A stretch of 62,560 bases of DNA, counting the filler, from Hausera hauseri (taxonomy: Eukaryota), in NCBI GenBank assembly GCA_046269625.1. It is 11 parts of 11 records of this genome, joined end to end, with 100 filler letters (N's around TTAATTAATTAA, not from the genome) between each part and the next. Parts side by side here need not be neighbours in the genome. Positions count along the whole stretch, not along the records: positions 8,946 to 12,953 come from JBJURY010823861.1; 10 more parts are not named here. One strand, written 5' to 3'. Position numbers and translations under genes: made by a program. This document shows, piece after piece, positions 1-60,759 of the stretch (position 1 is the stretch's first letter; each line of letters starts with the position of its first letter). The notes beneath the pieces were generated by a model. The model saw nothing but the letters and a program-made list of their open reading frames with translations, did no database searches and was not told where the DNA came from.

Positions 1-939
1 AAAACAATAAATATATGGGCCGGGTGATATTTACTTGAGCAGTTTCGCTCGGTGTTTTGTACGTGTCCGAATCAAGTCCAATAGAAGCCAGTAATTTTTT
101 ACGGTCTCCGCCAACATACACGGGTTCGGTTAGATCCGTTAAAATATTGATTCGATGAAATGCTTCGCAGAGACATGGTTTGTGTTTAGCAACCACGGAC
201 CGTCCTCCGCCGGTTTGACCGAATTCTCGTTTCTTAAAACCCAGATTCCGTTCCAATAGTTCAACAAAGGAAAAATATGTAACATTGTCATGTAGTGTAA
301 ACGAAATACGACCATTAGAGTTTAATTCAAATGTCTTTAGAGCCAATTTAGCTATAACCTTGATGTTTGCGCACAATTCTGTTTCCGTTTCAGTAAGAAA
401 AGCAGTTCTTTTTGCATGAGAGTAAAAAATTCAGTCTTTTGCCAGTTCACTGTAATATCGGTGGTTTTCATGGAAAAGTTCTATTCTTCACTAATTATAC
501 TCTGTCTACCGAGCTGTAGACCTTTCGAGCGCACATTGACAGATTGAAAACCCCAAGCCTAAGCGTCGGCTTGTAATTGAAATTGCAATTCAATCGGATG
601 TTTGTGTTTTAGAGTCAATTGATTGTTTAAATGAAAAATATGTACCAGGAAATATTGCCGCTTGTAATTGCGAACGTGAAATATTCCATTAGAGTCTCGG
701 ACTAACTGCAAACGATTAGAGGCAGGAGATTGTCTTACTGGAGTATAGTATATTCCACAGTTCTCACGAATTGTTATTGGTGAAAATGTAAGCGTCAATT
801 CCGCCAAAGCCACTTCCCAGGCTCCTTGGCGTAAGTCGAGCGGCTGGTCCAACGCCATGTTAAACCGTTCAGTGGTATTGTTGTTGTTGTCATGTTCTGA
901 TAATCTGTTACTCTCAAGTACCAAGTAAATACTCATCAC
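1..939 (-). pseudogene. Polinton minor capsid (penton-like) protein, truncated at contig edge
   Basis: N-terminus MSIYLVLESN...FNMALDQPLDLRQGAWEVALAELT fits the Polinton minor capsid pattern (YLxLPSN...LxxPxxLxGxWEVGLxE). In-frame stop at 559-561, with similarity to 52077-53013 continuing beyond it. Confidence 0.8.
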
Positions 940-2045
940 TCAATCTGCGATGCAAATATCCAACTCGGTGTATTGTATTCGTGCCACGTCACCAGATATT
1001 GTTTATTTGAACCTTTGCCGCGTGAACGCAGAATTTCCTGAATACGATATACATTAGGTTTTTCCGACAGTACGTGCAGTTCTTGTTCGTAGAATTTACC
1101 GCATATTTCCTCACCGTTTTCATCCTCTAAAACGTACATGACAGGTGTTTTTTCCGTTTATTGCCGAAATTCGGAAAACCTCGTCGCTCCAGTTCTTATT
1201 GAAATTCTTAATGAATGGCGTCGTACTTATTTTCAAAATACGTGCGTAAGCACTGATTTTATATTTTGGACGTTTAACTGCCTGTCGTTGTCGGTTTTGA
1301 TAAAACCACATCTCCACATCATCGATTACACCCACCGGCCGTAATCCATTGATGCCACGATGTGTCGAATGATTGTATGCATGAATAACATCCGGCAGTA
1401 CATCTACCCAGAATTTGTTTAGGTGACCGTGCAATATTTGATTAAATAGTTCAAGGAGTGCAGATTGTATTGGAAAAACACCGAGTAGTGATTTACGCCG
1501 AACCGTTTCAAGACCGCTGCAACGTGGGCGTTGCAGAATTCCTTACCCAAATCCGTTTGTAAATGCTTTGGCTGTTGTTATTCTTATTGTATCAGTGTCT
1601 GAACAGCGTCGGCAATATCTTTACCGGATTTAGATTTCACGGCAATTGCACACGCAAACCGACTAAACACGTCAACGCATGTCAGCACGTACAGATACCC
1701 ATCGTTGAATCATTTCCATCGTTGAATCATTTCCATTAAATCCATTTGTCATACGTTATTTACACTGGTAGCACGGCATGCACGAGTTGGAAACCGCCTT
1801 CTTATCTGTTTGTTTTGGCTGTATGCTAACTGTTTCCCGAGCCAACGTTTGGTCTGTTGCCGAGTCTGTTTGACAGTCTTTGCTAGTTTGTCAACGCCGG
1901 TATACCCGACGAAATCACGAGGATCGAACCACACGTCGCCCACCGTTGTCGTCGGTGGTGTTGCTTTTGCTTGTATTACAACAATTTGAACGAAACGTAA
2001 ATGAAAGACTCGGTAAACTGGGAGAGAAAGATGAAAAACATGCAC
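936..2045 (-). pseudogene. Polinton c-integrase (rve) with C-terminal chromodomain
   Basis: WFDPRDFVGYTGVDKL, QMDLME, YVLTCVDVFSRFA, LQTDLGKEF, WVDVLPDVIHAYNHSTHRGI, NWSDEVFRI, GKFYEQEL, then chromodomain YRIQEILRSRG...YLVTW...SWI. Broken by stops and frameshifts. Confidence 0.9.
1699..1732. repeat. 17-bp tandem duplication (CCATCGTTGAATCATTT x2) within integrase
   Basis: Directly visible. Not present at the homologous position in copy B. Confidence 0.85.
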
Positions 2046-2087
2046 CCATATCGCCGAACCATCATATACTTACCGTCATTGTTTGTA

Positions 2088-2459
2088 CTAAATTGTTAAA
2101 CCAATGAATCCACCCAGTAATGAAATGACAACCGGTAGAATTGCACCAAGGAATCCGCCATCTTGCTGGTACATGGCTTCTCGTTTCAGTCGTTTACTAC
2201 GGGCGTTGGCAAGGCCAATTAGTCGCTTTCGATACTTTTGTAAATTCCGCTCTCCACTACCAATGTCAATGTGACACACAACGATATTGTACAAAATTTG
2301 AATCAAATCGTCCACAACAAATTGCGGGAATGATCGCAACATGTTTCGCTTATATCTTGTAGATGCCTTGAGCAAAGCAATAAAGTATGGCTGAATATGT
2401 TTTAATCGCATTTTTGGACGTGTTGATGCTGAAACGTAATTGTTTATAACCGTTGACAC
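2088..2459 (-). CDS. Conserved small basic Polinton protein (PW-like) with C-terminal GGFLG amphipathic segment
   Basis: ALLKAS...LIQILYNIV...LQKYRKRLIGLAN...QQDGGFLGAILPVVISLLGG. Typical Polinton ORF lying between ATPase and integrase. Confidence 0.7.
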   Translation of the reverse strand: MSTVINNYVSASTRPKMRLKHIQPYFIALLKASTRYKRNMLRSFPQFVVDDLIQILYNIVVCHIDIGSGERNLQKYRKRLIGLANARSKRLKREAMYQQDGGFLGAILPVVISLLGGFIGLTI

Positions 2460-2614
2460 TGAGACGGTAATTTGCGTCTAGCTGCTGCTTTTGTTGTTCG
2501 AAGCACAAAAGTTATTAATCGCTTGGCTGTAGCAGTTCGTTTTGTTACACGTTTCTTGCCGGGCAACCGCTTGGTAGGTTTACGTTTAACAATTGTTTTT
2601 CGGAAATTCTTCAT
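2444..2614 (-). CDS. Small K/R-rich putative core/DNA-condensing protein (56 aa)
   Basis: MKNFRKTIVKRKPTKRLPGKKRVTKR...AARRKLPSQCQRL. Homologue starts at 50374. Confidence 0.5.
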   Translation of the reverse strand: MKNFRKTIVKRKPTKRLPGKKRVTKRTATAKRLITFVLRTTKAAARRKLPSQCQRL

Positions 2615-2623
2615 TTTATCACA

Positions 2624-3281
2624 ATCATGTCGTCGATTTTCGAATTTGTTTATAGACACATACACCTTTCTTATTTGAAATATCTGTTTGTACACGCATG
2701 TTATCGGTATACTGCTGTATAAAGTGAATAAAGAGATATCCATGCGATTTGTTCGTAACATCATGCTATGCATCTACCCAGTAGGCTAAATTGTGAGAAA
2801 ATGCTTGTCATGCAACATAATCAATGATAGTCTGATCACGGTGATTTTTGAACAACACCAAATAGTATACGTTTAGATTTCTTGTTATATGCTGTCTTAC
2901 CTGATGGAACATTTTTTTTGTAATGAAAAGAACCGTCACATCACGGTATCGAGCAATCTTCGTAAACAGGTTGTTGAAGTCCGATTGTTTCGCGGCTTTC
3001 TGAAATAAATCGTCAATGACAATAACGTCACTGTTGCGTAATCTCTCAAACCACTTCTCATCCAACCCACCTATAACCGTCATGGATTTCAGTTTACAAA
3101 ATTCCCGATGTGTCAAACCAGACTCACCATTTTTACAAACATCGTGATGCCAGTAAATGTTATTGTACCGCGGCGAATAGAACATGTCACTGTAGTTTTG
3201 CAACTGTTTACACAAAAATTGTGTGTTACCACTTCCAATGGGGCCTAAAATCTGGAAAATTGCATCATTCTTCAGCTTCAT
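2624..3281 (-). pseudogene. Polinton DNA-packaging ATPase (FtsK-HerA/A32-like)
   Basis: Degenerate Walker A GPIGSGNT, Walker B VIVIDD, FTKIARYRDVTVLFIT and YLVLFKNHRD. Premature stop at 2808-2810. The 3' end is approximate. Confidence 0.88.
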
Positions 3282-3316
3282 CTAAATAATAATATAATCT
3301 TTCCTCACATGATTTG

Positions 3317-3347
3317 TTTATAATCATGTCACAAGCACATATAAATA
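3317..3347. promoter_or_regulatory. Back-to-back TATA boxes (putative bidirectional promoter for ATPase and TBP-like gene)
   Basis: TATAAA on - strand (3317-3322) and TATAAATA on + strand (3340-3347). Both are conserved in copy B (49696-49701 +, 49676-49683 -). Confidence 0.5.
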
Positions 3348-3373
3348 GCTACAGTATAAAAACTGTTTCCATA

Positions 3374-3805
3374 ATGTTAGCTAATATCAATTATCTCGGA
3401 TATGTTACCCAGTGTGACATTAACACACAACCTTTTAATCCATGGAAGCCGAGGCAGTATATCCTCAAGTGTCCACCGGATTTTACATGCATAGTATTTC
3501 AATCGGGAAGGTGTCGTATTATGGGTTGTCGCAAACCAACCACAGCTGACAACAGTAACAGTAAACTACTTCCATTCGGAGTTGTCATTGACCAAATACA
3601 ATCAATAACGGTATCGACTCAGTTAGGCTGTCCATCAATAAATTTATACAAATTAGCAATGACCACTGAATGCACGTATGAACTTGAACTGTTTCCTGCA
3701 CTGAGACTGACATTGTTTTGCCAATTTTGAGTCAATGTGTTTAGCAGTGGAAAAATTGTTGTACTTGGTATTCGGACAGTGAACTATGAATCGATCATTA
3801 ATTAA
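3374..3805 (+). pseudogene. Minimal TATA-binding-protein (TBP)-like protein
   Basis: Repeat 1: LANINY...TCIVFQSGRCRIMGCR. Repeat 2: IQSITVS...INLYKLA...YELELFPALRL...*VNVFSSGKIVVLG. Compare TBP YEPELFPGL...LIFVSGKIVLTG. In-frame TGA at 3728-3730. Confidence 0.85.
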
Positions 3806-3859
3806 ATTAAAAACCACAAAAATATTTCAGCGAATCAAAATAATGTACTCTGCACAATA

Positions 3860-4489
3860 ATGACAAACTACAAATACTATTCCCATGCTCACTCAGACAC
3901 TACTACCATGGAAGACGATGATAAAACGATTCAACTCATTGATGATGATGACGATGATGGTGGTTGTGACAATGTTGAAAGTTCAGACTGGTCGTGGTTG
4001 TTTGGCTACAGAAAGGACAAATCTAATGTCAAATTGCTGGAAGCGAAAACACAACCTGCCCAACAGGTATAAAAATGGAATTGCCTTTAGGACGATTATG
4101 ATGTCGATTGCCTAGAAACGAAAAAGAAACTTGCTCAGAAATCACCAGCACAAAACCGACGTTAAAAAGGCAAATGGTAATGATTGGAATACGTGAACGA
4201 AAATCAAAACCGTCGCGCCAAACATAGACACTTTTATCGAAGCGAATTTTTTGCAAGTATGAAATGCAATTTCTTCAAATATCCGTTCTCATTTCATTGA
4301 ATGATCCCGTGTTTTTATGCGCACCCAAGTACAGCTATCGCGTAAAATGGCTTTCGGGTGAAAATTTGGATAAACTTTCTGATGCTCTAATTCAACTAAA
4401 CGTGGATTTAAAGTTGAACGAAACGACCGTGCAACAGCAATCTGTCGTTTTACCGCCTCAGAAAACGAAATTGTTTGATTTTATCGGTC
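3860..4489 (+). pseudogene. Unknown Polinton ORF(s): acidic DWSWLFG region and ISLNDPV...LSDALxQLNxDLKL domain
   Basis: Both peptides are conserved in copy B (48438-49120). The acidic part is in the same frame as the TBP-like ORF. Confidence 0.55.
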
Positions 4490-5157: not shown

Positions 5158-8100
5158 TCAGACGTTGGACATTTCCGATTTCAATTTGACAGTTAATTTC
5201 CCACTTTTCCACGGTTGTTTGAGTAGAAGAGGATGGAAATTATCCGGAAGTGGACGACTCATTTTATCGATCGATACGACTAAACAGAATTTGTTGAGGT
5301 CATCATTGGAATACTGAGGTGCGCATGGATTCCTTTGTAGTGCCGTATCGTTTAGTTGTTGAACGATGAGTTTGATAACGTTCCCAGTCGTTGTTTGAGA
5401 TGTTAATGATATTTTAACGGATGTTCCTTCGAGTAGACCACACGGATAACCGGCATAAATACGTAGGGTACCTTTTGGGATTTGTTTTCGTGGAGGGGTA
5501 GCAACATGATTATCGTCGACATCAATGGGCTTATCATGGATGTCATTGATGTGAGAGTCCGTTTTGTTGATGTCATTAACGGGGCTATTGGATTTGGATT
5601 TATCTGATCGATTTTTGTGAATAGGTGATCGACGAATAGGACTTCGGCTGGGTCGTTTCAATAACGGAGAAGCATCGGAATCACTCGATGAGATATTCCT
5701 TAATGAGGTAGGACTGACACTATCTGATGGAACATTCAAGTTATATATATCATGTTTGTCGGACAGTGAGGTGCTGGAACTGCCCCATGGATTCGATTCT
5801 GGACAGTGTATTTCTGTAAAAAGAACTGTCTGAGATGATGCATCAGTGTTTACCACAGTCTGTAGAGGGATAGTCAAGAATGATGAAATCTGCTTATCCC
5901 TGCAGTTGTTAATGACATCAACGGACCAGCGCATAATTTTGCAGTACTGTTCCAATTTATTTTGAATATCCTGAAATTGTTCTAAACGCTCTTTGCTTTG
6001 GTCAATTTCATGCTGATCGAAACCTTGCCGTAAACTCTGATAGGCCAATGGTAACAAAAGGTCCAAACATGAACTCAGTGTTGACCAAGACGAGAATGAA
6101 CCATCTTCAGATAGATGAGCGTAAAAATGGTAAAATTCAAAGGCATGCAGAGGGACCCATTCGTAATCCAATGGTAGAATAATTTCACTACCCGGAACAC
6201 CACAAAAATCTTCAAGTGCTGGTACGATTAGTATTATTCGAACTCGTGGCTTTATCCACAAAACTTCTTCCAAATACAGTCGACAATGTTCAATATCGGG
6301 TAGTTTTAATTTTAAATTAACTTGTAGTTTCTGCCACGTTTTGACAATTGCACTCTGAAATTTTAAACATCGTTTGTCTGTCGAATTATTGGGAGTCTCT
6401 GTCGAATGTTTAAGCGAAAGTATATGGCTCCATTCATCCTTGTCCACGTGCCAATTGTCGCGAATTTTAACAATCGGTATTGTGTTTGGATTAAACAAAT
6501 GCTGTTGAATGTAAAGTTGATCGAGTGTACTTTTAAAACGGGCATAACCCAGATAAAGTCCATCTTCCATTGTATGGGTAATTCGTTTATTAAAAGCTAG
6601 ATAACTATCCATCTTGCCGTAGAGTTCTTCTTCGAGACCGCTTTGTGAAGAGACTGAATCGTTAATATTGCCCGTCGATTTGGTTATTTTTGAGCCGAGT
6701 GTCCATTTGAGACCAGCAGGTAGAGTAATGTGTTTAGCAACGGAAACAAGTCTACTTAACACAATTACACTGTAATTCGTCTCATGTATGACACCAGAAT
6801 ACACAAGTCCGAGATCTGTCGTACCAAGTGTGAGTTGCAATTGCAATGCAGCGAATATTAATTTCACCCTTATCTGCATGCTAGCCGGAACTTGAATCCG
6901 TCCAAGAACCTCCACCATTAATTTCAAATCGGGTTTATTAGCTAGAAGTCTCATAAACCAAACTATTTCAACATTAATAGCTTGTAGACTGGGTTGTTCT
7001 TCATCAACCAAAACGAATGGTAATTGGTCTTCACCAAAACTTAACACCTTCTCCGTATCTTGTGCTTTAAAAACGAGACTCAAATAAAGACCATGTTTTG
7101 GTTGACGAACAAACTTACTGGACGACGAAAACAAAGCCTTCAACAAAGATTTTCGACCGGTTATTCCAGGAATGTGTAACTTGTTCGACTCATTCTGTTC
7201 ATTGTTATTACCTTGAATGATTTTGTTATGGCTTCGAATACTCGACAACCAGAATTGTAGTTGCTGTTCCATTTTCATTTCTTCGACATCAAAACGTGTA
7301 ACATACCACTGCTGGGGATGGGAACAACGCCGACTGCCTGTAAATTCTGAAGATTGTGTGATAACCTCAGTCCAACAGGACGGTGCTGAACATGATGGAA
7401 CACTAGCAACTTTGGCTCCGGCACCTTTAAGATTCATTGAACTCACTCGAACATAATAGTCAACTTGTGGAGATAGATCACAAATCTGATATCTACCAAT
7501 GGGGAATTTTGTCCGAACAATAATTTCATCATCAATTTCACTGAAATCCGCATGTTGAGACCACTCGATTTTATATCGAGTTACGATACTATCCGATGGG
7601 GGCGAAACAGTCACGAGCAAAGAATTCAAACCGGCAACTTCAAGCGTTACCTTTCTGGGCGGAGAACCGGGTTTCATTTGTTCAAAGTTCGATTTCAGGG
7701 TATTAATCTGTCGATGTAACGAATCGAGCACTTCCACATCACGATTGATAGATCCGATACTACCACCGTACATGTGGCTGCATAATTCCAACATTTGACT
7801 GGTACAATTATTGGCAACAATTGTCAAATGTCGTTGGAGCAGCTTTGGGTCGTTTTCGAAACAAACGCTATTCCGTCCACCGCTTTCAATGAGTCGCTTT
7901 GCCAGAGTCGAATAATTATAGAGCATCGCAACGTCAAGCGGAGTAAGATCGAAATTGTTATGGTTATTTACAATACCGGGATGGCTGTTTAAAAGCGATT
8001 CAACAGTTTTCAAGTCATTATTATTTACAGCGGTAAAGAGCATTCCAATTTCTCGTTGCATCAATTTCCCATCGTTCCAAACCAGACTCAAATCGTCACG

Positions 8101-8613
8101 GAGTTCGGTAAGATTTTTTGCACTACCGGAACGCGGCATTCGTTTGTTAAATGATCGAGAAATTTTCATTAAATTCGGTTCGTTCATTTGGACGGTTTTT
8201 AAATCATCTTGCAATTTCTGACTATGATCAATACTGTGTGAACGATTAGTTCGAGAATTGAGAACAAACACCGTTGTGTCACTGTGTTTTCGATGGTATT
8301 CGTTCGTTCGATTAGCAACACCTGGACTTTTATGTCTGACACGATATTTAATCTTACCTGGTGGCGAAATGGCTCGAGACTTTTGAAATTGAGATAGTTT
8401 TCGTTCGCGAGTTTCTGACTGATTATTTGAATCAGTAGCAATCGCCGTTACTCTATTCGTTAACTCGGATTCATGAACAGTTTTATTCATTGAATCGTGT
8501 GTGTTTTCATTCGAACTGGCATTGGTGTTGTTCAATTCAATGCTGGAAGCAGTATCGCTTTTACCGAATCGTTTACGTTTATCAGTCAAATAGGTGAATG
8601 ACTTTCCGAGCAT
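5158..8613 (-). CDS. ANKFN1: Ankyrin-repeat and fibronectin type III domain protein (ANKFN1 / wide awake family) with C-terminal Ras-association domain, intronless
   Basis: 1151-aa uninterrupted ORF. ANK repeats (LFTAVNNND...LTPLDVAML), FN3 (VTRYKIEWS...DLSPQVDYYVRVSSMNLKG...PSCW), HGLYL and DGLYLGY blocks, RA-like GTLRIYAGYPCGLLEGTSVKISLTSQTT...VIKLIVQQLN. Confidence 0.88.
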   Translation of the reverse strand: MLGKSFTYLTDKRKRFGKSDTASSIELNNTNASSNENTHDSMNKTVHESELTNRVTAIATDSNNQSETRERKLSQFQKSRAISPPGKIKYRVRHKSPGVANRTNEYHRKHSDTTVFVLNSRTNRSHSIDHSQKLQDDLKTVQMNEPNLMKISRSFNKRMPRSGSAKNLTELRDDLSLVWNDGKLMQREIGMLFTAVNNNDLKTVESLLNSHPGIVNNHNNFDLTPLDVAMLYNYSTLAKRLIESGGRNSVCFENDPKLLQRHLTIVANNCTSQMLELCSHMYGGSIGSINRDVEVLDSLHRQINTLKSNFEQMKPGSPPRKVTLEVAGLNSLLVTVSPPSDSIVTRYKIEWSQHADFSEIDDEIIVRTKFPIGRYQICDLSPQVDYYVRVSSMNLKGAGAKVASVPSCSAPSCWTEVITQSSEFTGSRRCSHPQQWYVTRFDVEEMKMEQQLQFWLSSIRSHNKIIQGNNNEQNESNKLHIPGITGRKSLLKALFSSSSKFVRQPKHGLYLSLVFKAQDTEKVLSFGEDQLPFVLVDEEQPSLQAINVEIVWFMRLLANKPDLKLMVEVLGRIQVPASMQIRVKLIFAALQLQLTLGTTDLGLVYSGVIHETNYSVIVLSRLVSVAKHITLPAGLKWTLGSKITKSTGNINDSVSSQSGLEEELYGKMDSYLAFNKRITHTMEDGLYLGYARFKSTLDQLYIQQHLFNPNTIPIVKIRDNWHVDKDEWSHILSLKHSTETPNNSTDKRCLKFQSAIVKTWQKLQVNLKLKLPDIEHCRLYLEEVLWIKPRVRIILIVPALEDFCGVPGSEIILPLDYEWVPLHAFEFYHFYAHLSEDGSFSSWSTLSSCLDLLLPLAYQSLRQGFDQHEIDQSKERLEQFQDIQNKLEQYCKIMRWSVDVINNCRDKQISSFLTIPLQTVVNTDASSQTVLFTEIHCPESNPWGSSSTSLSDKHDIYNLNVPSDSVSPTSLRNISSSDSDASPLLKRPSRSPIRRSPIHKNRSDKSKSNSPVNDINKTDSHINDIHDKPIDVDDNHVATPPRKQIPKGTLRIYAGYPCGLLEGTSVKISLTSQTTTGNVIKLIVQQLNDTALQRNPCAPQYSNDDLNKFCLVVSIDKMSRPLPDNFHPLLLKQPWKSGKLTVKLKSEMSNV

Positions 8614-8945
8614 TGTGCCATAAAAAACAACAGATGATGTGCTGATGCATGTGCGATTTGCACACCGATAAAGTTCAATTAATGAATATCCGATAGAAAT
8701 CGGTTAGTCTGTCAGCAAATATCGAGTTGTGTGTTGGGAAGTTCAATTCGAGCTAAAAAACAGAAAACTTGAGATAACATTTTAGTGTAATGCAAAAGTT
8801 AAGATTAAAATCAAAATCAAAATCAACTTAATAAATAATATAGAANNNNNNNNNNNNNNNNNNNNNNNNNNNNNNNNNNNNNNNNNNNNTTAATTAATTA
8901 ANNNNNNNNNNNNNNNNNNNNNNNNNNNNNNNNNNNNNNNNNNNN

Positions 8946-11395
8946 GGAAACAGACACGTAACCACTACCAAGGATTGCCGAAATACTCGACAAGTTGCAC
9001 GGCTCAACCATATTCACTACAATTGATCTACAGAAAGATATTGGCAAGCAGAAGTAAAGGAGCAGGATGAGCCAAAAACGGCCTTCTCCATAGGAGAAGG
9101 GTTGTGGAAATTCAATAGAATGCCATTTGGATTAAAGAACGGGCCCTCGACTTTTCAAAGAGGAACAGAATTATTACTCCTAGATGCACCACATGTCATA
9201 GTATATATCGGTGATGTAATTATAGCATCTTCGGATTTCCAACAGAATTTGAAGGACATACAAGATCCCTTTGATAGATATGAAGAAATTGGTTTAAAAA
9301 TAAACTGGAAGAAATTTTCATTTGCTCAAACCGAAGTTAATTTTCTCTGACATCGAGTTGATAGGTACGGTGTAAACCTCAAGTTAGACTATTAAATAAA
9401 ATTAAACATTTCCCAACAGCCACTACTGTCAATGAATTATACAAATTTTTAGGATTAGCAAATTATTATCGAAGATTCATAAAGAATTTTAGTAAAGTAG
9501 CCAAACCAATATATGAACTATTACGTGAAGATTTAGAAAAGGTAATATGGACAAGTGAGTGTAAAAAGGCCTTCGAGGACCTGAAAGAAAGATTATTAAA
9601 TGTCCCCATCCTGATTTATCCAGATATGACTAAACCATCCATACTGGCAACGGACGCAAACAATTATGGATTAGGAGCGGTATTGTCACAAAAGGGAGAA
9701 GATGGCAAGGAATATCCAGTTGCTTATGCGTCGAGAAAATTAAATAAACACCAAAAGAAATGTTCCGTTATTGAAAAGGAATTACTAGCGGTAATATTCG
9801 CCTTAGAAGTATTCTCACCGTATATTAGTGAGAATAAACCATTGATAATCTACACAGACCATAGACCTCTACAATGGCTAAAGAAACATGAGAACTCCAA
9901 TAGTAGACTACTACAATGGGCTTTAAAACTCCAACCTTATACATTAGATTTTCAATACAAGCCCGGTACACAAAATGCAAACGTGGATTATTTATCAAGA
10001 ATGCAGCAGAAAGAAGTAGAAAAGAAAGAGCTGATTGCAGTGGTATGGAGTATGGATGAATCCGTAAAAAGGATAAAAGAGAATCAACGAGAAGAATAAG
10101 AAATAAAAGCCATTAGAAATTATCTATAAAACAAAATTATACCAAAGGATAAAGAATTGGCTCATCACTTAACCAGATTTAGCGATGCATACAAAGAGAA
10201 AGATGGATTTCTATACTACATTCATCAAAATGGACCTGCACTAGTATTGCCAAAGAAGAATAGAGCGGTACTGCTAACCCAATATCACGATGGATTACTA
10301 GGGGGACATCAATCAGTAAGAAAAACGATAAAAATGTTGAAAAGGAAATACTTCTGGTCTACTATAGCAAATGATGTCCAAGATTGGAGTGACAGTTGCA
10401 AACTTTGTGCCACACAAAAGAATACAGAATCCAAATTTAAAGCTCCCCTGAGAGTATGGGACAATCCACCTGCCCCATTTGAATTTACAGATATGGATAT
10501 AACAGAACCCTTACCATTGACAAGAAACGGGAACAAATATATCTTAGTGTTTGTAAATTATTTCACACGATGGGTCGTTGCACTGCCTATGCCAGATACG
10601 AAAGCTGAAACAATAGCCAAAAAAGTTGTAGAAAACATCATATTTAATTAAGGAGCTCCTCGAATTGCGTTAACAGACCAAGCATCCAACTTAACCGGCA
10701 GTTTCATGCAAGCAATATATCATATTATGAAGATATTAAAGTTGAGGTCAACCCCGGATCATCCAGAGAACAACGGAATGGTTGAAAGATATATAGGAGA
10801 TCTGAAAGAAAAGCTACAAACAGTAGTCAATGTAAGACAGGATGACTGGGATGAGTACATTAATGCGTGTGTCTTTGTGAATAGGACGTATGTGCATGAA
10901 GCTACCAAAGAGACACCCTTTTATATGATGTATTTAAGAGATGCCAGATTACAAATTGATTCGGACTTCAATGTATGGCCTATATCTCAGTTAACGGAAG
11001 TAGAGGAATATAAGCAATTAATGCAGGAACGTCTCCAATTAGCGTATACAATAATAAAGGATAACCAGAAGGAATATAAAATGAAATACAAAAAGTATTA
11101 CGATAAAAAGACAAAGCAACCGATAATCAAAGTAAAAGACAAAATGATGCTATACACGCCATTAAATAAGAAAGGCAAAACATCCAAGCTGGATAGACCT
11201 TATAAGGGACCGTACGAAGTAGAAAAAGTGGATTTACCTAACATATGGTTAAAGAAAAATAACACTAGAATTAAAGTACATGTCAACAGATGTAAACCGG
11301 CATCTAAGGCGAGCGAATTAAGAAACGACGAACAGGAAATAGTATGGGCCATCGACTATAAAAAGAGAAGTAATAAAACTCCGAATTATGAAGCA
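8946..11395 (+). pseudogene. gypsy pol: RT, RNase H, integrase with GPY/F domain
   Basis: MPFGLKNGPSTFQR, YIGD (mutated YxDD), TDANNYGLGAVLSQ, PVAYASRKL, EKELLA, YTDHRPL, HHCC zinc finger, GMVER, PYKGPYEV, VHVNRCKP. Several stops. Confidence 0.93.
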
Positions 11396-12807
11396 TTCAA
11401 ATACCTATGTCTATTGGTTCTCATAGGGATACCAGGCCTGTTAGCTCAAACGACAAAACCTCTTGATCCATGGATGAGAACCTTCCCTTCAAATGAAACG
11501 TTAGAAAGTAGCCTGATAAAAAGTATTTATCATGTGATAACCTACACAAGGAAAGGCCAAAAATGTATAAGATTTATGACATTCGAAAGACTACCCAACC
11601 AGTATATGATAGGAATTCAGGTGATCCACAAATATGATTATGAACGAAACCTGAAACAACGAAAATATGACTGTGGCCTTACCCATTGGAGGAACACGAC
11701 GGAATGTATAGTAGATTACTGTAGCAATTATCTCATATACTATACTCTGATCAAGAGACATAAAAATCGCCATCAATGGCAATAACCGAAGTGCCGAGGT
11801 ATCATACAGGTTCCTAGTAGACGAACAATGAATGCAACTGGATTAGATAAAATAATAGTAACTCAACTCACTATTAAACCGATTAGATTCAAAGGTGGAC
11901 GAAGTTGTGTCGAAATTACAACAATGATAGAGTTGGAAGAGGACAGAGTAATAAGTATAAGACTTACGGATGTAGAAAAGAAACAAAGAATGCCAACGAA
12001 TTGCCAGTTAACCGAGAAGCACCTCAGAGTCTGTTGAAATGCCCTAAGAGGAAGAACCTGTAATTTACAATTTATATTAATACAAAAGGATTCAGAGAGA
12101 GGTAAAACTCAAACTTACCAAGGGCATAGAATACATGTTCCACTCAAAAGTGTCACTGAATATGACGACGACCAGCAGCCACGTGTCACGACACCTCTTG
12201 CGAATCTTACACTATCTAATAAAATAAAGACAAATGTTGGAAATATGACAGTTCTTATTCGACCTCACGCCTCATGTTATCGCTATAAACGTTCTGTCTT
12301 AGAAAATGTCACTATATTTTCCACGCTCACTTCATTAGTTGTAGATATTCAACCCGATTTAAACTTATATAAAATAACGCTTACTTGTAAACTAGGTGAA
12401 ACGATTATAGCAAAAGGTATAATTACGCCAGACGATACAGTAATGCCGTGTGCCGATCTAAGTCCAAATACAAAATATGCGGTCACACTACAATTATATT
12501 GTGACTATAATACAATAACCTCTACTAAATTACTGATAGTTTCGATGAAAGCTAAAACACAACGAAAAGTAAAAAACCAAAAAAAAGTACAGGCTCAAAT
12601 AAAAATCCACCACCACCAAAAGCAAGCTATGCCTATTTCCGAACAGAAATAATCATAATAAGTACTGTATGTCCCACGACCTTCTTGATTGCGCTAGCGC
12701 TTTTAATAAAAACAATTGTTTGTATACGAAAACGTCGCAGACCAAACTGGGTTAGAATAGACATGCGACGCATACCAAATATTTTGGATACTGATAATCC
12801 AACTTGA
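11396..12807 (+). pseudogene. Env-like type-I membrane glycoprotein fused in frame to integrase (signal peptide, two Cys domains, FN3-like domain, TM)
   Basis: ORFs at 10706, 11828 and 12245 share one frame and are split only by single stops. Signal-like FKYLCLLVLIGIPGLLA|Q; sequons NET, NTT, NAT, NLT, NMT, NVT; RYKR at 12281-12292; CADLSPNTKYAVTL. After a shift in the A-run near 12580: IIIISTVCPTTFLIALALLIKTIVCI-RKRRR, stop at 12805-12807. Confidence 0.78.
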
Positions 12808-13053
12808 CGATGGCTTCAGCAGATTGTTGTCGACACAATCCGAGAAATTAAGATAATTGAATATTATTTATTTACCGTGAAAAATAATAAGTTTAAAATG
12901 ACAACGATTACCAAACCGAAATATATGATAACCCTTGTATTATATTTAAGATTNNNNNNNNNNNNNNNNNNNNNNNNNNNNNNNNNNNNNNNNNNNNTTA
13001 ATTAATTAANNNNNNNNNNNNNNNNNNNNNNNNNNNNNNNNNNNNNNNNNNNN

Positions 13054-16000
13054 AACTATGCCCTCCATTATCATCGGACCCTGTTAGCATAGGATCATTT
13101 GGGCAAATACCGAAGCCAAAATTTAAGTGGACCCCTACCGTTTATATGATGGGCCAAGCACTTCAACACGAATTTGCGATAATGGACCAGTTAACAGACT
13201 ATGTAGTACTCGGTTGCGACATATTGAAACAAATACCAGGCATGGAAATCGATGCGCATAATGGAAAATTACTTGGGCTTGCAACAATTAAGGGGACAAA
13301 AATAATAAAGGAAAAGAAATCGGGCGAAGTATGGATTCCGGTAGACGGAGACATTCCGCCCAGAACCGAAATGATAATTTTCCCACAGATTCATCAAGAC
13401 GAATATCTGCCAGTATATTTTGAACCTCAAGAGAATATCGATCCAAACCTCGTGTTTAGCAATATCCTATGTAGAGTAACGAAGGGACACATACCTATCA
13501 GATTAGTGAACAATGCACAAACCCTCGTAAGATTGCACGCTAACACTACTTTAGTCACACTTGCAGAGTATCGGCAGTAACAATAGAGGAAAAACCATAC
13601 AAGTGCGCTGAATTTCCATCTCACGTCGAAACCAAATTTTCTCCGGAGGCGTATTGCAAGTTCTACGAATTATTATGTAAATACCGTTCAATAATGGCAC
13701 AAAATGTGGAAGACATATGTAGAGCAAAAGCCCTGAGATTAACAATCCCATTAAGAAAGAAACGAGGCTCGAACGACGAAATCGATCTAGAGGAACAGAA
13801 AATGCTCAAATGGTACCCACCTCCCCATTCATTGAGGCTAGAAATAACTAAAGAGATAGAACGAATATTAAAGGCCGGTATAATTCGACCAAGCTACCGA
13901 TCATGGTACTCACCTATACTTATGGTTAAAAAGAAAGAAACCACGAAACATCGATTTTGTATAGATTACCGGGCATTAAACACGCTTATGATGAAAGACT
14001 CGTTCCCTCTACCGTCGGTAAAAGAAGCTTTAGACAGACTATCAGGAGCGAAATGGTTTACCACTATCGACTTACAATCGGGATTCTGACAAGTGGAAAT
14101 CGAAGAAGAAGATCGATATAAGATAGAGTTTAAAACACATGATGGCGTATACGAATTTAATGTTATGCCTTTCGGCATCACCACAGGACCAGCTATATTC
14201 ACTAGAATGATGAATAAGATGCTCATGGGACTCGATCATGCTTTCGCATATTTAGACCACGTAATGATAGCATCAAAAACAGAGGAAGAACACTTATAGG
14301 ACATTGAAGATACACTCTTGCGACTGGAACAAACAGGGTTGAAACTAAATCCAAAGAAATGTAAATGGGCACAGAACGAAGTATCGTACGTCGGACACAT
14401 AGTTGGAGAAGTAGGATCAAAACCGGATAAATTCCTGCTAAATAAAATATCCGATTGTATAGAACCGCAGAATCAAAAAGAGTTAAGACACTGGTTAGGC
14501 CTATGTGGGTATTATGCCACTTGCGTACCAGACAATTCGAAAATTAACGCGCCATTATATCGCCTACTCAAAGAATGAACAAAATGGAGATGGACGGAAG
14601 TGGAACAAAAAGCATTCGACGAAATGAAGAAAATCTTGACAAGCGAACCAGTTCTAAGACACTTTGATTTTAACGTACCATTCATCACTAAACAGGTCCA
14701 AGTAAAGAGGGTATAGGATATGAATTAGCTCAGAAGCGGGAAGATGAAGAACTAGAACACCCAACAGCCTATGGAGGACGCTCATTAAAGAAAGCAGAAA
14801 TGAATTATTCGGTTACAGAATTAGAAACATTAGCCGTAAAGAAAGCACTATGACACTTTATTGTCTATGTCTATGGACAAAAGATCATAATAGTGACCGA
14901 CCATAAAGCAGTTACGACATTGAAAGGACGAGCTAATAACCTAACACGTAGATTAAACCGTTGGATAGAGAAAATCTCACGATATAACATCGAATTCCAA
15001 TACAAACCAGGTAATAAACACGTCGACACCGAAGCACTATCGAGGTTAAAAACAAAAACAAGTGGGATTACCACGGTGAAAAAATTCAGCTCGAACAGAT
15101 AATCGAACGTCAAAGAACCCATACCCTGGATAAAACGATTAAGATCACCGCAGAGCAAGCGAAAGATAGGATTATTCAGCAAATTGTCGAGTTCATACAA
15201 AACGACAAAATACCCAAAGGACGACAACTAAAGAAGCATCTACAAAAACACGGACATAAATATCGCGCATCGAACCAAGATAATATCCTGTATTACTAAC
15301 GAAGCGGAAGGAATCTAACAGTTATTCCAAAAGGATTACGCGCCGAGGTACTCATGGCTGAACGTGATTCGTACTTAGCTGGACACATGTCTTGGAAGAA
15401 GACATTGGAGAGGATATTAAATAAATACTATTGGCCAAGCATTTATATCGATGTAAAGAATTTGGCAAGTGCTTGCGAAGTTTGCGCGATAAAGCAAAAG
15501 AAAACCAAAAGCTATGCAGCGAAATTAAAACACATAAACGTACCAGATAGGCCCATGCAAGCTATCTCTATAGATCTAGTGGGACCCTTGCCGAAAACTC
15601 ACAAAATAACACATATTTTAACATGCGTGGATCGATTAACGCACTTTGTCGAACTAGTGGCACTATTAGATAAAAAGGCAGGGACTTTACCCGACTCAGT
15701 GGTAAGGAAAATCATCTGTAGATACAGACCATCAGAAGAAATCTTAACGGATAGAGGACGGAACTACACGAGCGAATTATTCGAAAAAATTACTAAGATA
15801 TTTGAAACTGAACGTTTAACTACTACCGCATACCACCCCCAATGTAATGGAATGGTCGAGCGAATGAATTCAACAGTCATTCGTATACTGTCAACAGTAG
15901 TGGCCAAATACCAAAAGGATTGGGACGAATTTCTAGAAGGAACACAGTTCGCAATCAATATTACCCCACATCCAGCAACAGAATTTAAACCGTTCTTTAT

Positions 16001-16430
16001 AATGTATGGACGAGAGACAATTTTACCCGCAGATCTAGGTATGACACCGTACTAAAAAACCTTGAGGATTTAGAGCAAAACTTTGCCGAAGTCTTACAGA
16101 CAAGATTGCAAAAGTGTTGGGAAGTTGCAAAGACATTATGACTCGAATACCATGAACAATTTAAAAAACAATATGATAAAAAGACTAAGCCCCATGATCT
16201 GGAAAAAGGGAACTGGGTTAATATACATTACCCGGTTACGAAGAAAAGTACATGTTTGAAACTAACCCATACCGGAAGAAGACCATATGAAATCGTCCGC
16301 ACAACCCCAACCACGGTTTATGTTAATAAAAACGGTAAAGAGGGTCGTATCGATTCAAAGAGTAGTTAAAACAGATATAATACCAACAAAACACTACAAT
16401 CTAAGAAAGCGAGAAACAAAGACCTCGTCA
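13054..16430 (+). pseudogene. gypsy pol: protease, RT, RNase H, integrase
   Basis: VVLGCDIL; SWYSPILMVKKK, RFCIDYRALN, IDLQSGF, MPFGI, YLDH; TDHKA; GHMSWKKT...CEVC, IDLVGPLP, LTDRGRNY, TAYHPQCNGMVER; ends in HYNLRKR. Confidence 0.93.
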
Positions 16431-17806
16431 ATTGTCACCAGACTGGTATCTTACGTACAGATAATAGTAGCCTTATCGTTTATTGCTGTCCTAACGCCCA
16501 AGTCTAACGCCCAATATTGGGTCGATGAAACTTCGCTGAGCGATATATATGGAATCAGGAAAATCGGGCTAAAACCTTCACCGCCGAAGGAAGGAACTTC
16601 CAAACACAAAGACGAAAAATTTTTACGAGCAATAAAATTAGATTATTTTTCGCCAGAAGCCCCATGTGTTGGATTTAGGTTACCAGGACCACATGAGGGG
16701 CGAATCCAGACACTATTCCATGACCTATTAAGCCAAGCCGAATCTGAATGTAAATTCGAGACAGAAGATGATACAATTTGCTGCAACGTAGAATACGAAC
16801 ACTCAGTTATCGTTCATATTTGTCAGACTGTGATAATGTATACGCTGAAATAAATCTGAATTCACATTTAGTTGTGCCACGAACTTATGGAGATTACCTT
16901 AATATAGAGCTGGAAGATCTGCTCCAGTCCATCGACCCAATAAAACGGATGCTAGAAGAAAACAGCCAGTATAACGGGAAACCTAAAGGACGACTGTATC
17001 CAAATAATCACAGAAGGACGGTAAATTAAAGGATAAGTGATCATGGTTCAATTCGTAAAAGAGGACAAAGCAGCTTATAACCAACAATACTGTCAAATTG
17101 ACGCAGAAAGGACAAATAAGTGTTGTAAGTTACCTCAGGGATATAAATATAGAATTCGACTAGACTTATGAAGTTCGACCGAATCAGCCGAGTATTTACC
17201 TATGAAGTTATCAATTGTAAAATCCAGTTTGGGGAATTCCGCCCGAGATGACAACAAATAGAATTACGACTACAAGAATGAATACGACTACTTCACTGCC
17301 AACAGAATCCTCCAAACAAGTGGATTACCTCAGAAGGATCTAGAAATGATCCCTATAAAATATTGGACAAAACAACGTGAAATAACATTCGTTGTGGAGG
17401 AAGCACTTAATTACGACGTAGAAATAAGCTGCCAAACATTATATAACAACCAGAAAGTAACATTGAAAGTAACTATCGGATCAAATGCACCTACTTGAAA
17501 CCCAAAACAGATTACATAATACAAATAGGTGCAGAGAACAAACAAAGTAGAACATTTACGGTACAAACCTTAAACGAGATTGTATTAACAAAACCACTGA
17601 CTAATGAGGAGACGGAAGACGAAACTACGACTACCGCTAAAATAGAAAACTTAACTAAATGGACAACTTTGTCATTAATATCGATTATTGGAACGTCAAC
17701 GTTCGCTCTCATAACCTTTGTTCCGTTTTTCCATTTCATTACCAAAAACTGTTGTAATAAGCGTCATAAAATCACCGAGAGGGAATTAAGGGTGATGGGA
17801 CCGTAG
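16431..17806 (+). pseudogene. Env-like type-I membrane protein downstream of integrase, homologous to 11396-12807
   Basis: Signal-like IVTRLVSYVQIIVALSFIAVLTPKSNA|Q right after YNLRKR. Cys domains PCVGF...ECKF...ICCNV and DCIQI...YCQID...KCCKL. FN3-like CTYLKPKTDYIIQIGAEN, Thr/Glu stalk, TM WTTLSLISIIGTSTFALITFVPFFHFI, tail KNCCNKR. Frameshifted. Confidence 0.78.
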
Positions 17807-17989
17807 AACGAAATNNNNNNNNNNNNNNNNNNNNNNNNNNNNNNNNNNNNNNNNNNNNTTAATTAATTAANNNNNNNNNNNNNNNNNNNNNNNNNNNNNN
17901 NNNNNNNNNNNNNNCGCTTGAAAACAGTGGATCAGGTTCTGGCTCAGGTTTAAACATACAGTAACAAGAAAATCATTTGAAGAGAATTA

Positions 17990-28504: not shown

Positions 28505-29735
28505 TTGACCGGAAGTGATAAAACAATAATAACTTAACTTAGTTCACAATTAATCCATTTCAATGCAGTGAAGGTGACGACACCAAGAGTACTTTTTAAC
28601 AATTTATTTTTTCTTTCACTAACAGTTAAATTTTCGCATGTTTCAAAGTTATGAGTTCCCCCGCAATACAAACACTTGTCATTATCACTAGTGGCCGCCA
28701 ATAACTCCGAGGCGCTCGTTTTATTGGCGATCGAAGGTCGACAGTCTTTTCGAAGGTTAGAATTAAAATTTCCATAGGATCGAGCGGGAAACGAAACCGC
28801 TTCACTCACAGGCTTTTGAGTACTAAACTGACCGGCCTTCTCCCTCGCCGTTACCGATTTATACAAAAAATCCAAAAGTTTATTTAAATCGTGGCATGAA
28901 CTATCTATATGTTGTTTATTAAATTCTAGCGCCAAATCACTTGGAAGTAATCTAATTATAATGGAAGAAAGCAGCGTAGAATAAGTTTCGGATTTCACCC
29001 CCAGAGATTCTAGTGAACGTATTTGTGTTTGACAATCAAAATACAGATTACGTAAGGCCTGTATATTGGAAGAAGTTTTCAGAGGGGGAATAGAAAGCAA
29101 ATTTGACATATGAGCATTAATCAAAACATCCTTTTGCCCAAATGTTCCACTAATTAATGTTACTGCCTTCTTATAATTTTCTTCCGTAATTGCGAACCCT
29201 TTTATGCATGCAAGTGCTTTCCCACCTAAAGACGATTTTAAATAGCAGAATTTATCGATATTGGAAAGCGAAGGGTTTTTATCTACCGAATTTTCAAAAT
29301 GATTCCAAAAATTTAACCATTCTGATGGGTCTCCAAAATATTTAGGAAGTACAAGTTTTGGTAGTTTGACAATATTCTCAGAAACTCTGTGCTAAATATT
29401 AGTCACATCTACATTTTGCTTCTATTTTTCACCGGAAGTGCCTTTATTTTATTTTCTAATTTAACCTTCGCTGAAATTATGCTTTCCTGACACTCATCTA
29501 CGCGAATAATTTCCGCCTCTAAATCGTCATCTTCAATCGCGCTTTCTATATCCTTATCCAGTTCACAAAGTATTTGGCGTTTATTAATTAATTGTTCTAA
29601 AAGTACCTCACACGGCACTGTGTCAGTCTCGGTTCCCGCCAAACACTGATCTATTTTTGTCAATAACTGGGTTAACTGTCCCCTATGACCTCCCCGTTTC
29701 TTTATCAGTCTTTCTAAACTTTCTGAATTTGCCAT
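28505..29735 (-). pseudogene. BEL/Pao gag (DUF1759-like), frameshifted
   Basis: KKRGGHRGQLT, VKLPKLVLPKYFGDPSEWLNFWNHFENSV, DKFCYLKSSL, IRSLESLG and CLYCGGTHNFETC zinc knuckle. Confidence 0.88.
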
Positions 29736-29970
29736 TTCAATCAAATCAAACAAAGCAATAATATTCTAATATTCTAACAATGCTAAAAATCAAATATAAT
29801 ACAACAAATATTCCAAAAATGCTAAAGTCAACTATAATACGGCAATCTCAAATATAATACTATAATAAGAAGGGATATGAACAAGCGAAACCTGCCCCAC
29901 GAATGCAATTCAAATAAAAAGTAAACCAATTCGAACATACCTCTAGATTCCGCTAATCCTTTAATCACAA

Positions 29971-29992
29971 ATTCCCGTGCCTAGATGCACCA
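29971..29992 (-). promoter_or_regulatory. Primer-binding site, tRNA-Gly-like
   Basis: TGGTGCATCTAGGCACGGGAAT directly after the LTR end. Resembles the complement of the tRNA-Gly 3' end (TGGTGCATTGGCCGGGAAT). Confidence 0.7.
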
Positions 29993-30321
29993 TGAAGACG
30001 AATGATGCGAAGTAGATACTATGTGGTTCAGTGGATTTTATAACACTTCGCCATTCTGTAAACAATTATTCAATATCTCTAGACTATATTTTATTTATTT
30101 ACATACGTACATCGATAATTACTCTATAACACAATCTCAACCATATTGGTAGGAATAACAAGTACATTCTATATCACCGAGACGATTCGAAACGAAAACT
30201 AAAACTAAACTAAACTAAAGATAATATACATCTAGATTTTACATAACAGCTCCACCTAGCATCGAGACGATGAGCTGACACGAAAAACAGTTTGAGGAGC
30301 GGAAATTACAAAGATTCTTCA
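29993..30321 (-). repeat. BEL/Pao LTR (329 bp)
   Basis: Inverted termini TGAAGA...TCTTCA, preceded by PPT GGTGGGGAG and followed by the PBS. Confidence 0.85.
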
Positions 30322-30586
30322 CACTCCCCACCGGTGAACAATATGTTCACCTACTATATCTAAATACACTAATACAGCACAATAATATAATCATTAAATA
30401 TATAAAACATTTACATTACAACACTCTACATATCAAATTAAAGTACTAAATCTATACATTGCAACTTCAAAAGTATGAGTATAATAATTAAAACATAATT
30501 AGTAATAACAACAAATTTTCAAAACCAAATCAACATTTTAAAATTAAAACATTAAATTCAATTATCACCAAATTTGAAATACAGGA

Positions 30587-32602: not shown

Positions 32603-32945
32603 AGTTCCATAAGCCTTTTTGCNNNNNNNNNNNNNNNNNNNNNNNNNNNNNNNNNNNNNNNNNNNNTTAATTAATTAANNNNNNNNNNNNNNNNNNNNNN
32701 NNNNNNNNNNNNNNNNNNNNNNCAGGGCAGGCTGCAGTGGGCTCCAGAAGCAACGGTTTTTGGCATCCCACTTCTGACACCAATTTATACGTAAATCTGG
32801 GATAAAAAATCTAAAGATTAGATTTTAAAAACTGCAAGAACTACATGACATTTAAAACAACTCTGACAATAAATGATAAGAAATTTCGTTTAAAATGTCG
32901 AAATTCAAAATGTGCGTAAAAAATCAATTTTATTCAAAGCAAATT

Positions 32946-38000: not shown

Positions 38001-38581
38001 CGAGGTGACAGAGGCCGTACTTTTTGGCGTATCGGACGTTGGTGCTGTGTGACTATGTGGTGTAAAGTACTGTTTGCGGGAGTAATGGTACGGTCTTTTT
38101 TAAGTATGCGTGGACATGATGTGTTGACGAACTGTTGTAAAGTTGTAGGTAACTGTGAGAGATTCAGTGAAAGTGGTGAAACGGCTTGAGTAGTAGCAGA
38201 TGCAATGTGTTAGTTGTTTGGTGATGTGCAGTCAAGTGGTATTTGGTGCAAGATGGTTGAATTGAAAATGGTGTTGGATGAAGTATTGTCGTCGATTGAG
38301 TTAACGTTGGTGGCAGTACCACAATTATCGACATAAAACCTCAATCGTATATCAATATTATTATTTAAAAATTTACGAATAGAATTATTGTGATGAAAAA
38401 TCGAAATATTCATTGAGTTTTTTAAGATTGACTTTCGCATTTCGGTCCACTGCGCGGTAGTCAAAACGCTATTGACATATCCAAAAATGTCGCCAACAGT
38501 GCCCTTCCTCAAACATCGTTGACTGCAGTCAACCAGTAAATTATAGTGTGAGAGAAAATCAGATCCTAGAATTGCCGTCTG
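35074..38581 (-). mobile_element. Ty3/gypsy element G3 pol (RT, RNase H, integrase), degraded
   Basis: [92 protein letters not shown] and TDQGPQFES. Confidence 0.92.
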
Positions 38582-38681
38582 NNNNNNNNNNNNNNNNNNN
38601 NNNNNNNNNNNNNNNNNNNNNNNNNTTAATTAATTAANNNNNNNNNNNNNNNNNNNNNNNNNNNNNNNNNNNNNNNNNNNN

Positions 38682-48437: not shown

Positions 48438-49120
48438 TTAATTCATCGGGCACATTAGACAATTCACGACCGGTAGTTTAGATTTTGCGGCCCGTAAAAC
48501 TACATATTTCTGTTGTAAGGATGTTTCTTTCAATTTTAAGTCCATGTTTAATTGACTTAAAGCATCACTAAGTTTCGTAACATTTTCACTCGATAGCTGC
48601 TTTACACAATATCTGTACTTGGGTGTGGTCAACAACACCGGATCATTCAACGAAATCTGTACGGGCGTTTGCAGATTATGCATTTCATACTTTAGAAAAC
48701 GTCATCGTCGGTAAAAATGTCGGTGTTTCATACGTGGGCTTTAATTTTTGTTTCTGTATTCAATTAGTCATTCGCGCTTGTCGTTTTAATTTAGGCTTTT
48801 CTATTTGATGGACAGGTTATATTTTCGGTTCCAGACAGTTGACATTAGAATTGTTGCTACCAAGCACTTGTGACAAATCGGAACTCTCATCATCATTACC
48901 ATTGAGTATTAGTGCTCTATCTTCTGTTAACATGCGCTTACCACCAATAATTCTCCATTGCCATTTTAATATCGCTTTTATTAATTGTTGGACAAGTTTC
49001 GGTTTCAGACACTTGTCATTGTCATTCTTGGCACCAAACAGCCACGACCAATCTGTACTTTCGTCATTGTCAGATGTATTATTGTTGAGCAGAATCATTT
49101 CCTCGTCGTTTTCCATCGTA
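48438..49120 (-). pseudogene. Unknown Polinton ORF(s) homologous to 3860-4489
   Basis: MENDEE...DWSWLFG and ISLNDPVLLTTPKY...LSDALSQLNMDLKL. Confidence 0.55.
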
Positions 49121-49189
49121 GTAATGTCTGAACGAATATGGTAGTGGTATTTGTAGTCCTCTGACCAAAGTCTATTACTTTGATTTAGT

Positions 49190-49645: not shown

Positions 49646-49709
49646 GATTGATTGAAACAATGTTTATGCTGCATCTATTTATATGCGTAGGTGATTATAA
49701 ACAATATAT

Positions 49710-50371: not shown

Positions 50372-50373
50372 TT

Positions 50374-50917: not shown

Positions 50918-50920
50918 ACA

Positions 50921-55803: not shown

Positions 55804-55864
55804 ATAAAATCCGTTGTGAGTCACCTTTTCGTTGTACTATGAAGTAATTTGTTTGATTACTATT

Positions 55865-60712: not shown

Positions 60713-60759
60713 ATTCGACTGGTTCTCTTTACTCCAAGAGATGTTTCGTACTATGTCCT

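Follow-up and report, generated by a model that had tools for sequence, protein, structure and literature searches.

The DNA analysed here, a stretch of 62,560 nucleotides from Hausera hauseri (the window), points to a lineage of animal Ty3/gypsy elements in which the Pol frame continues behind the integrase into a signal-like segment, an ectodomain of predicted FN3 type with a dibasic site and a transmembrane (TM) helix, a module that would be cut off Pol by signal peptidase and act as a non-fusogenic attachment protein on particles. Reading the sequences together, we give this interpretation a slightly better than even chance. The module itself is borne by the element, and its layout is conserved across three deeply diverged elements, one of them intact.

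The window consists of eleven short contigs joined by N44-TTAATTAATTAA-N44 spacers, adjacent contigs not being linked in the genome. The module-bearing contig (8946-12953, 4008 bases) has N spacers on both sides and starts inside the RT; gag, protease, LTRs, PBS and PPT of the element lie outside it and the 5' half is missing, and no purine run of 10 or more was found in 12800-12953. Pfam, alignment and tblastn identified the order RT-RNase H-integrase with a GPY/F-like end on this contig, which places the element in Ty3/gypsy (Table 1). The integrase frame is open from 10652 to 11782, with the GPY/F-like motifs GPYEV at 11207 and HVNRC at 11279. Stops interrupt the pol frame at 10097, 10127 and 10649 and the RT is divided between frames; the window copy of the element is dead throughout.

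Table 1. Positions in the window of the pol and module features of the first element and of the module of the second; P0002 is the intact relative described in the text.
Feature	Position	Strand	Evidence or remark
RT, C-terminal part, split over frames	8953..9374	+	Pfam RVT_1 E 5.5e-14; tblastn with P0002
RT thumb and RNase H	9365..10096	+	Pfam RT_RNaseH E 1.6e-38
Integrase: H2C2 finger, core (stop 10649), GPY/F-like C-terminal domain ending HVNRC	10130..11293	+	Pfam Integrase_H2C2 E 2.7e-17, rve; alignment to P0002
Charged linker, 34 codons, in frame, no Met	11294..11395	+	
Predicted internal signal peptide FKYLCLLVLIGIPGLLA, 17 residues	11396..11446	+	hydropathy peaking at 2.44 over 15 residues; aligns with the signal of P0002
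Cys-rich ectodomain 1 (stop at 11783), beta-rich on inspection	11516..11815	+	no Pfam family above noise
Cys-rich ectodomain 2 (stop at 12035), weakly repeating domain 1	11846..12142	+	
RYKR convertase-type site, directly before domain 3	12281..12292	+	aligned to K-R of P0002
Membrane-proximal, probably FN3-like domain with C-x2-L-x5-Y motif at 12449	12293..12550	+	weak PDB sequence matches; aligned P0002 domain
A-rich, Lys/Pro-rich stalk, reading frame changes inside	12556..12648	+	register varies between copies
Predicted transmembrane helix	12649..12726	+	hydropathy peaking at 2.44 over 19 residues
RKRRR stop-transfer, short cytoplasmic tail, stop	12727..12807	+	
Corresponding module of the second gypsy element, which is decayed further, on the next contig	16443..17806	+	signal-like 16449-16505, motifs 17121 and 17486, TM from 17666, basic tail, stop 17804

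The original prediction, that the integrase frame enters a signal-like segment without a stop and runs on for some 400 codons with two stops, was borne out by counting: of the 418 codons to 12649 only two are stops (11783 and 12035), where base composition would predict 29.5 (P 3e-11). The six N-glycosylation sequons, RYKR at 12281 and CADLSPNTKYAV at 12449 were all located as claimed, as were, in another frame that opens at 12556, the TM helix (12649-12726), RKRRR (12727-12741) and the short tail with its stop at 12805. The window module holds 14 Cys, and its signal peptide was called from hydropathy and a small -1 residue only. Programmed -1 frameshifting at the A-rich slippery-type heptamers of the stalk (12556-12600) was considered and rejected: there is no stable downstream hairpin (z -1.0 and -0.1), in both relatives described below the last domain joins the TM without a break, and the register varies among copies.

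Other copies of the element were sought in two public runs, where 9175 and 1219 contigs match the 4-kb contig and leave none of its 30 bins uncovered. Among them is one that crosses 11311-11732, from the linker through the signal into domain 1, gap-free and with 76 differences. The stop at 12035 is not carried by contigs of other copies and the one at 11783 is not among the variable sites listed. Three contigs have a stalk of another length than the window copy, and one that spans the stalk has the same length; since other copies lack the second stop and the stalk varies in length, the breaks in the window module look like decay. The 16 contig pieces listed carry 610 substitutions versus 8 gaps, a comparison of little weight because these pieces were selected for length. 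The 29 variable sites listed show no third-position bias (10/11/8 by codon position) and so give no sign of selection on the module; most sites in such listings are ones at which the window copy departs from nearly all others. At 80% likeness, the contig depth summed over 12028-12697 (domain 3 and stalk) is roughly a tenth of that over 12698-12831 (TM and tail); this can do no more than hint at a variable ectodomain, as depth does not rank the parts.

The second element (window 13054-17814, plus strand) reads protease end, RT, RNase H and integrase, then signal, Cys-rich ectodomain and TM, and its pol is about 32% identical to that of the window element. Its module includes a Ser/Thr-rich linker, the motif CTYLKPKTDY and a basic tail; inspection revealed no clear R-X-K/R-R site in it. 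The distances in the second element agree closely with those in the first, with 1037 versus 1053 nt from signal to motif and 1217 versus 1253 nt from signal to TM. The only intact relative found, P0002, came from a search of longer proteins with the integrase end as query, in which 2 of 1530 candidates matched; it is a 1862-aa protein from one contig and forms a singleton cluster. Its unbroken ORF encodes a signal, one domain, TM, PR, RT, RNase H, INT, and then a second signal, domain 1, K-R, domain 2, stalk, TM and basic tail. P0002 and the window element share 39% identity over 778 residues (tblastn) and 35% over 361 residues running through the signal into the ectodomain. Another protein, P0003, is an ordinary pol that lacks the module.

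None of 28 other gypsy integrase loci from JGI has an in-frame hydrophobic segment after the integrase (three of them end at a contig edge); these control loci are distant and, by reading, mostly of the chromodomain type. In an integrase tree of 15 rows, which includes 11 of the 28 loci and omits a short piece from the window, P0002 and the first window element form a group at 89/90, and the second element is unresolved and does not group with them. Further gypsy pol pieces lie at window 35092-39635 (minus strand), where the integrase is followed by a low-complexity Ser/Thr/Pro tail and not by the module. That the module belongs to the element follows from three findings: other copies span the junction, the second element shares the layout and P0002 is intact. 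The same data bear on a recent capture of host mRNA, in which a fragment of an FN3 receptor would be carried along without serving the element, a reading suggested by the intron-free host pieces in the same window (an ORF with fn3 that we take to be ANKFN1-like, and LamG/EGF pieces). It is already weakened and appears very improbable, as the module stands in frame and in an equivalent position in elements that share just 32-39% pol identity, occurs in many copies, and has no host-like protein among 1.84 billion representatives or in two length-bounded searches.

P0002 also carries an in-frame signal-domain-TM cassette before the protease (residues 45-237), whose domain resembles the first domain behind the integrase (z 9.1, 0 of 1000 shuffles). 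The homologous cassettes flanking Pol, with four hydrophobic segments in all and a predicted topology that leaves PR-RT-INT cytosolic, could argue for a device that cuts and anchors, in which signal-TM pairs tether or release Pol at the ER for membrane assembly and the FN3 domains are lumenal spacers. We regard this as rather unlikely: a putatively glycosylated, multi-domain ectodomain of 290-370 residues with a dibasic site exceeds the needs of an anchor, and the domains before the dibasic site differ between elements, as expected of a binding part. The sequon enrichment of the modules over the pols is modest, with 14 in 799 residues (window ectodomain and P0002 modules) versus 15 in 1872 (two pols), a 2.2-fold difference (p 0.04). 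As for the furin-type site that had been predicted, the window protein has R-Y-K-R, but only K-R stands at the aligned place in P0002.

Homology among the ectodomains of these elements has moderate support from the sequences, and rests on layout, an after-the-fact motif and rank enrichment because the pairwise scores are mostly within shuffles. This is so for the window against the second-element ectodomain; signal plus domain 1 of the window against P0002 gave z 4.6 (2.0 without the signal), and domain 3 of the window against P0002 domain 2 gave z 1.2. The motif in question, C-x2-L-x5-Y-x-[VIL], was defined post hoc. The first window module has one instance of it, the second element two and P0002 three, one in each domain; neither the two pols nor P0003 contain it, and a six-frame reading of the window yields three further matches. 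With a profile of P0002's three domains alone, 5 of the 8 extension segments taken from the two elements in the window ranked in the top 20 of 1112 (P 6e-8), ectodomain 2 of the window protein at rank 7, and in a length-matched ranking with a P0002 profile 4 of 7 were in the top 10 of 156 (P 3e-4); no segment is significant alone in these rankings, for which domain limits were chosen by eye. Within the window protein, ectodomains 1 and 2 resemble each other at z 3.1 (9 of 1000 shuffles).

The membrane-proximal domain is probably FN3-like, as judged from a model for domain 2 of P0002 and from weak sequence matches for the window domain. All eight PDB sequence matches of the latter are fibronectin or monobody (E 0.33-1.4, below threshold), and all eight obtained with a six-row profile are FN3 proteins (E 0.44-2.3, below threshold). 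A piece of the second element matched the Pfam families Pur_ac_phosph_N (E 3e-4) and fn3 (E 0.017-0.038) under their gathering scores (for fn3, 15.7 bits versus 25), and Pfam fn3 gave no match for the window membrane-proximal domain. The noise level of the FN3 sequence matches is indicated by a two-row profile, for which 8 of 12 matches were unrelated dehydrogenase rows at better E-values (0.06-0.12).

AlphaFold2 modelled the P0002 ectodomain from a two-row alignment at a mean pLDDT of 47, with about 59-72 for domain 2 (residues 101-200) and below 40 for domain 1; a single-sequence model of the window ectodomain (pLDDT 31) was unusable. Compared with 48,161 solved chains, the domain 2 model matched ROS1 FN3 with Z 8.3 (rmsd 2.7, 84 aligned), and the top 7 rows and about 35 of 50 were FN3 by title (receptors, fibronectin, FN3 scaffolds). 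As a Z of 8.3 is near the common background of 7-8, the FN3 call for the membrane-proximal domain is probable, not certain. Atlas matches, all at lead level (below 0.9), were FN3 receptors (0.83-0.86) for the C-terminal module of P0002 and viral glycoproteins (0.84) for its homologous N-terminal module; the former include FN3-containing 'epidermal cell surface receptor' clusters (0.83), which we presume to be Sas, a host protein considered below. The FN3-like strand of the original prediction holds for the membrane-proximal domain, through the PDB matches and the P0002 model; we infer that the two outer, Cys-rich domains of the window protein may be disulfide-bonded FN3-type sandwiches.

The best structural matches of P0002 domain 2 include the cytokine-receptor and receptor-kinase FN3 domains of ROS1, IL-9R, leptin receptor and Sevenless, and these would also fit a module acting on the host cell. 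As a mimic of a receptor or a decoy, it would prevent reinfection or damp down signalling or immunity, and cleavage at the dibasic site would release its outer domains. Burro elements, according to the accessible part of PMC6431247, carry several host-manipulating domains. Such an action on the host cell nevertheless seems unlikely to us, since Pol-level stoichiometry and co-assembly fit a particle component, a common fold proves no function and the short tail leaves no space for any known signalling domain.

The original prediction had seen no signature of a described Env, and our searches agree. Neither the window protein (P0001) nor P0002 matched an Env or fusion-protein family in Pfam at E up to 10, nor the gB-type family PF24664, which as a positive control was matched by 3 of 3 decayed gB-type pieces in the window; the ectodomains span 373 (window) and 288 (P0002) residues versus about 560 codons for the gB control. 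A fusion peptide was not detected, the 20 residues after the dibasic site holding 0 and 2 Gly+Ala in window and P0002, nor was a heptad by a crude test (score reached by 264 and 101 of 300 shuffles) or any hydrophobic periodicity in the module, and the P0002 segment aligned past the dibasic site models as beta strands and not as a helical stalk. The window ectodomain had no match above noise in Pfam, nor, as a whole protein, among PDB sequences. Word-based searches for its homologs found none among 1332 candidates of near lengths and 1762 longer ones; other searches gave no match among 1.84 billion representatives or in 157 stretches of JGI metagenomes, and the window integrase had no relative in IMG/VR. 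No confident match to a described Env or retroelement ORF3 family appeared, and no set of matches confined to a host gene. A search confined to open papers turned up no description of an FN3 module behind a gypsy integrase.

A highly diverged fusogen or its remnant, for example one allied to domain III of class II proteins or to a companion protein of Ig-like type, would share with the module the Env position, signal, candidate convertase site and TM. According to the part of PMC9094657 at hand, class II domain III has FN3 topology, and EFF-1 domain III aligned with the P0002 domain 2 model (Z 6.9, rmsd 3.2, 83 aligned), below the cellular FN3 at 8.3; membrane-proximal FN3 topology is present in the module, but it is not specific to class II Env and came with no Pfam match. 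The Atlas lead to viral glycoproteins for the N-terminal P0002 module and the unusable model (pLDDT 31) of domains 1-2 of the window protein leave this reading some room. We nonetheless consider it improbable, because the P0002 cassettes hold one 100-residue domain (N-terminal) and two (C-terminal), too little for class II domains I-II, and because of the missing Gly/Ala-rich peptide after the dibasic site, heptad and Pfam Env family. The sequences thus support placing the module protein outside the described Env classes, as a predicted type I protein at the env position with a receptor- or adhesion-like character. The earlier description of an element-borne, env-position type I membrane protein resembling a receptor or adhesion molecule was in this respect upheld by the FN3-like domain and the lack of an Env family match.

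In the preferred reading, a non-fusogenic attachment protein, the module would be translated as the tail of the Pol polyprotein. Neither the window element nor P0002 has a Met in the segment that links the integrase to the signal, no polypyrimidine acceptor was seen there by eye, and manufacture as a Pol tail is on these grounds the simplest route, with splicing as the alternative. The internal signal would send the ectodomain into the ER, where host signal peptidase would free the module protein from Pol, and a convertase would cut before the last domain, shedding or priming the outer domains. In P0002 each signal-TM pair would return the chain to the cytosol, so that the enzymes would be kept where they are needed. 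The ectodomain would then bind a host surface protein and attach budding particles, attachment being the most likely role in view of the receptor-like fold and the lack of fusion features. Fusion itself might come from a gB-type protein encoded upstream or in trans; alternatively, uptake might proceed without a fusogen, as for Arc capsids in vesicles.

A published classification divides gypsy Envs into F-type and gB-type and describes the flatworm elements as gB-carrying, in the order GAG-ENV-POL (Chary and Hayashi, PMC13524379, in its accessible part); in Burro/GYPSM1 the env lies in frame between gag and pol (PMC6431247, likewise in part). Like these flatworm errantiviruses and Burro/GYPSM1, the window element is an animal Ty3/gypsy element with membrane proteins in long polyproteins, but their Env is a fusogen between gag and pol and the window module stands behind the integrase; the available portions of PMC13524379 and PMC6431247 describe neither a protein behind the integrase nor FN3. 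Since flatworm elements carry a gB-type fusogen between gag and pol, the module protein may be a second envelope protein and not an Env replacement. The N-terminal cassette of P0002 occupies the place expected for a gB env, so that a gB partner is no more than a possibility in this lineage. The second element of the same layout, the second cassette of P0002 and the gB-type Env of flatworm elements had no part in the original prediction. In P0002 and the second element a dUTPase-like segment was seen by eye between protease and RT, through a motif that we assume to mark it; it had no Pfam match.

The F-type Env of errantiviruses such as Drosophila gypsy and ZAM, as far as the accessible text of PMC13524379 goes, resembles the module in its place behind pol, signal, TM and basic tail and perhaps in its furin-type site, but is a separate ORF with fusion peptide and helical stalk, whereas the window module is in frame with the integrase, probably FN3-like and has neither fusion peptide nor heptad. 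Atlas virus, a BEL/Pao element, has a single Gag-Pol-Env ORF with phlebovirus-like Gn/Gc, a class II fusogen of about 500 residues whose domain III has FN3 topology (PMC9094657, in the part available), in contrast to short tandem domains of predicted FN3-like type, without Pfam match, in a gypsy element. Among non-Env membrane proteins, sORF2 of the Drosophila MDG1 group is used for cell-to-cell spread (PMC11952523, from the accessible portion); it is a short FAST-like fusogen with its own ORF, unlike the window module of about 470 codons, which has a predicted folded ectodomain and is in frame with the integrase. Rotifer ORF3s include short TM proteins, with fibronectin not mentioned in the accessible part of PMC5408684. 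In Drosophila, vesicles loaded with Arc capsids, which derive from Gag, are directed by the surface protein Sas to receptor-bearing cells (10.1101/2022.09.06.506798, in the section at hand); there the vesicle-targeting surface protein is a host gene, and the window element would encode its own ligand, an analogy only.

A further step, which we put forward tentatively and hold to be less probable than the attachment role as such, is a two-part entry as in herpesviruses and paramyxoviruses, with a fusogen elsewhere in the element and a fast-changing FN3 attachment protein of host-receptor origin delivered from the Pol end, cassettes lying on either side of Pol. Herpesvirus gB-type fusogens need partner proteins for attachment. 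For gB-carrying retroelements, no attachment partner is described in the accessible part of PMC13524379, and the FN3 module is a concrete candidate for this role. A receptor-like protein at the Pol end would be missed or read as integrase, as surveys use F-type and gB-type baits. If two-part entry were true, the module would represent a further class of retroelement envelope protein, and the intact natural P0002 makes surface display, cleavage and binding testable.

Several other features were observed in the window. A decayed gB/chuvirus-type env (PF24664) lies at 59102-60793 (minus strand), with 61000-62560 upstream and no pol on the contig, and is preceded by a long decayed ORF with a weak ubiquitin-like match (E 4e-4); its pieces resemble, as judged by eye, planarian rows in the accessible part of supplement 2 of PMC13524379. 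Directly behind it, intron-free LamG/EGF host-type coding pieces (57130-58646, minus strand) are followed by a purine-rich run near 57090-57115, and these pieces are possibly captured host mRNA inside the element. An uninterrupted, intron-free ORF of 1181 codons with ankyrin, fn3 and RA domains, which we take to be ANKFN1/Wake-like, occupies 5158-8703 (minus strand). Furthermore, a decayed virus-like element is present in two copies, 74-87% alike and in opposite orientation, at 1-4470 and 48477-53011; nearby ORFs at 44607-46232 and 55156-56296 resemble Polinton-type DNA polymerase, capsid and protease by eye, and a BEL/Pao element (Peptidase_A17, DUF5641) is found at 28505-32622 (minus strand).
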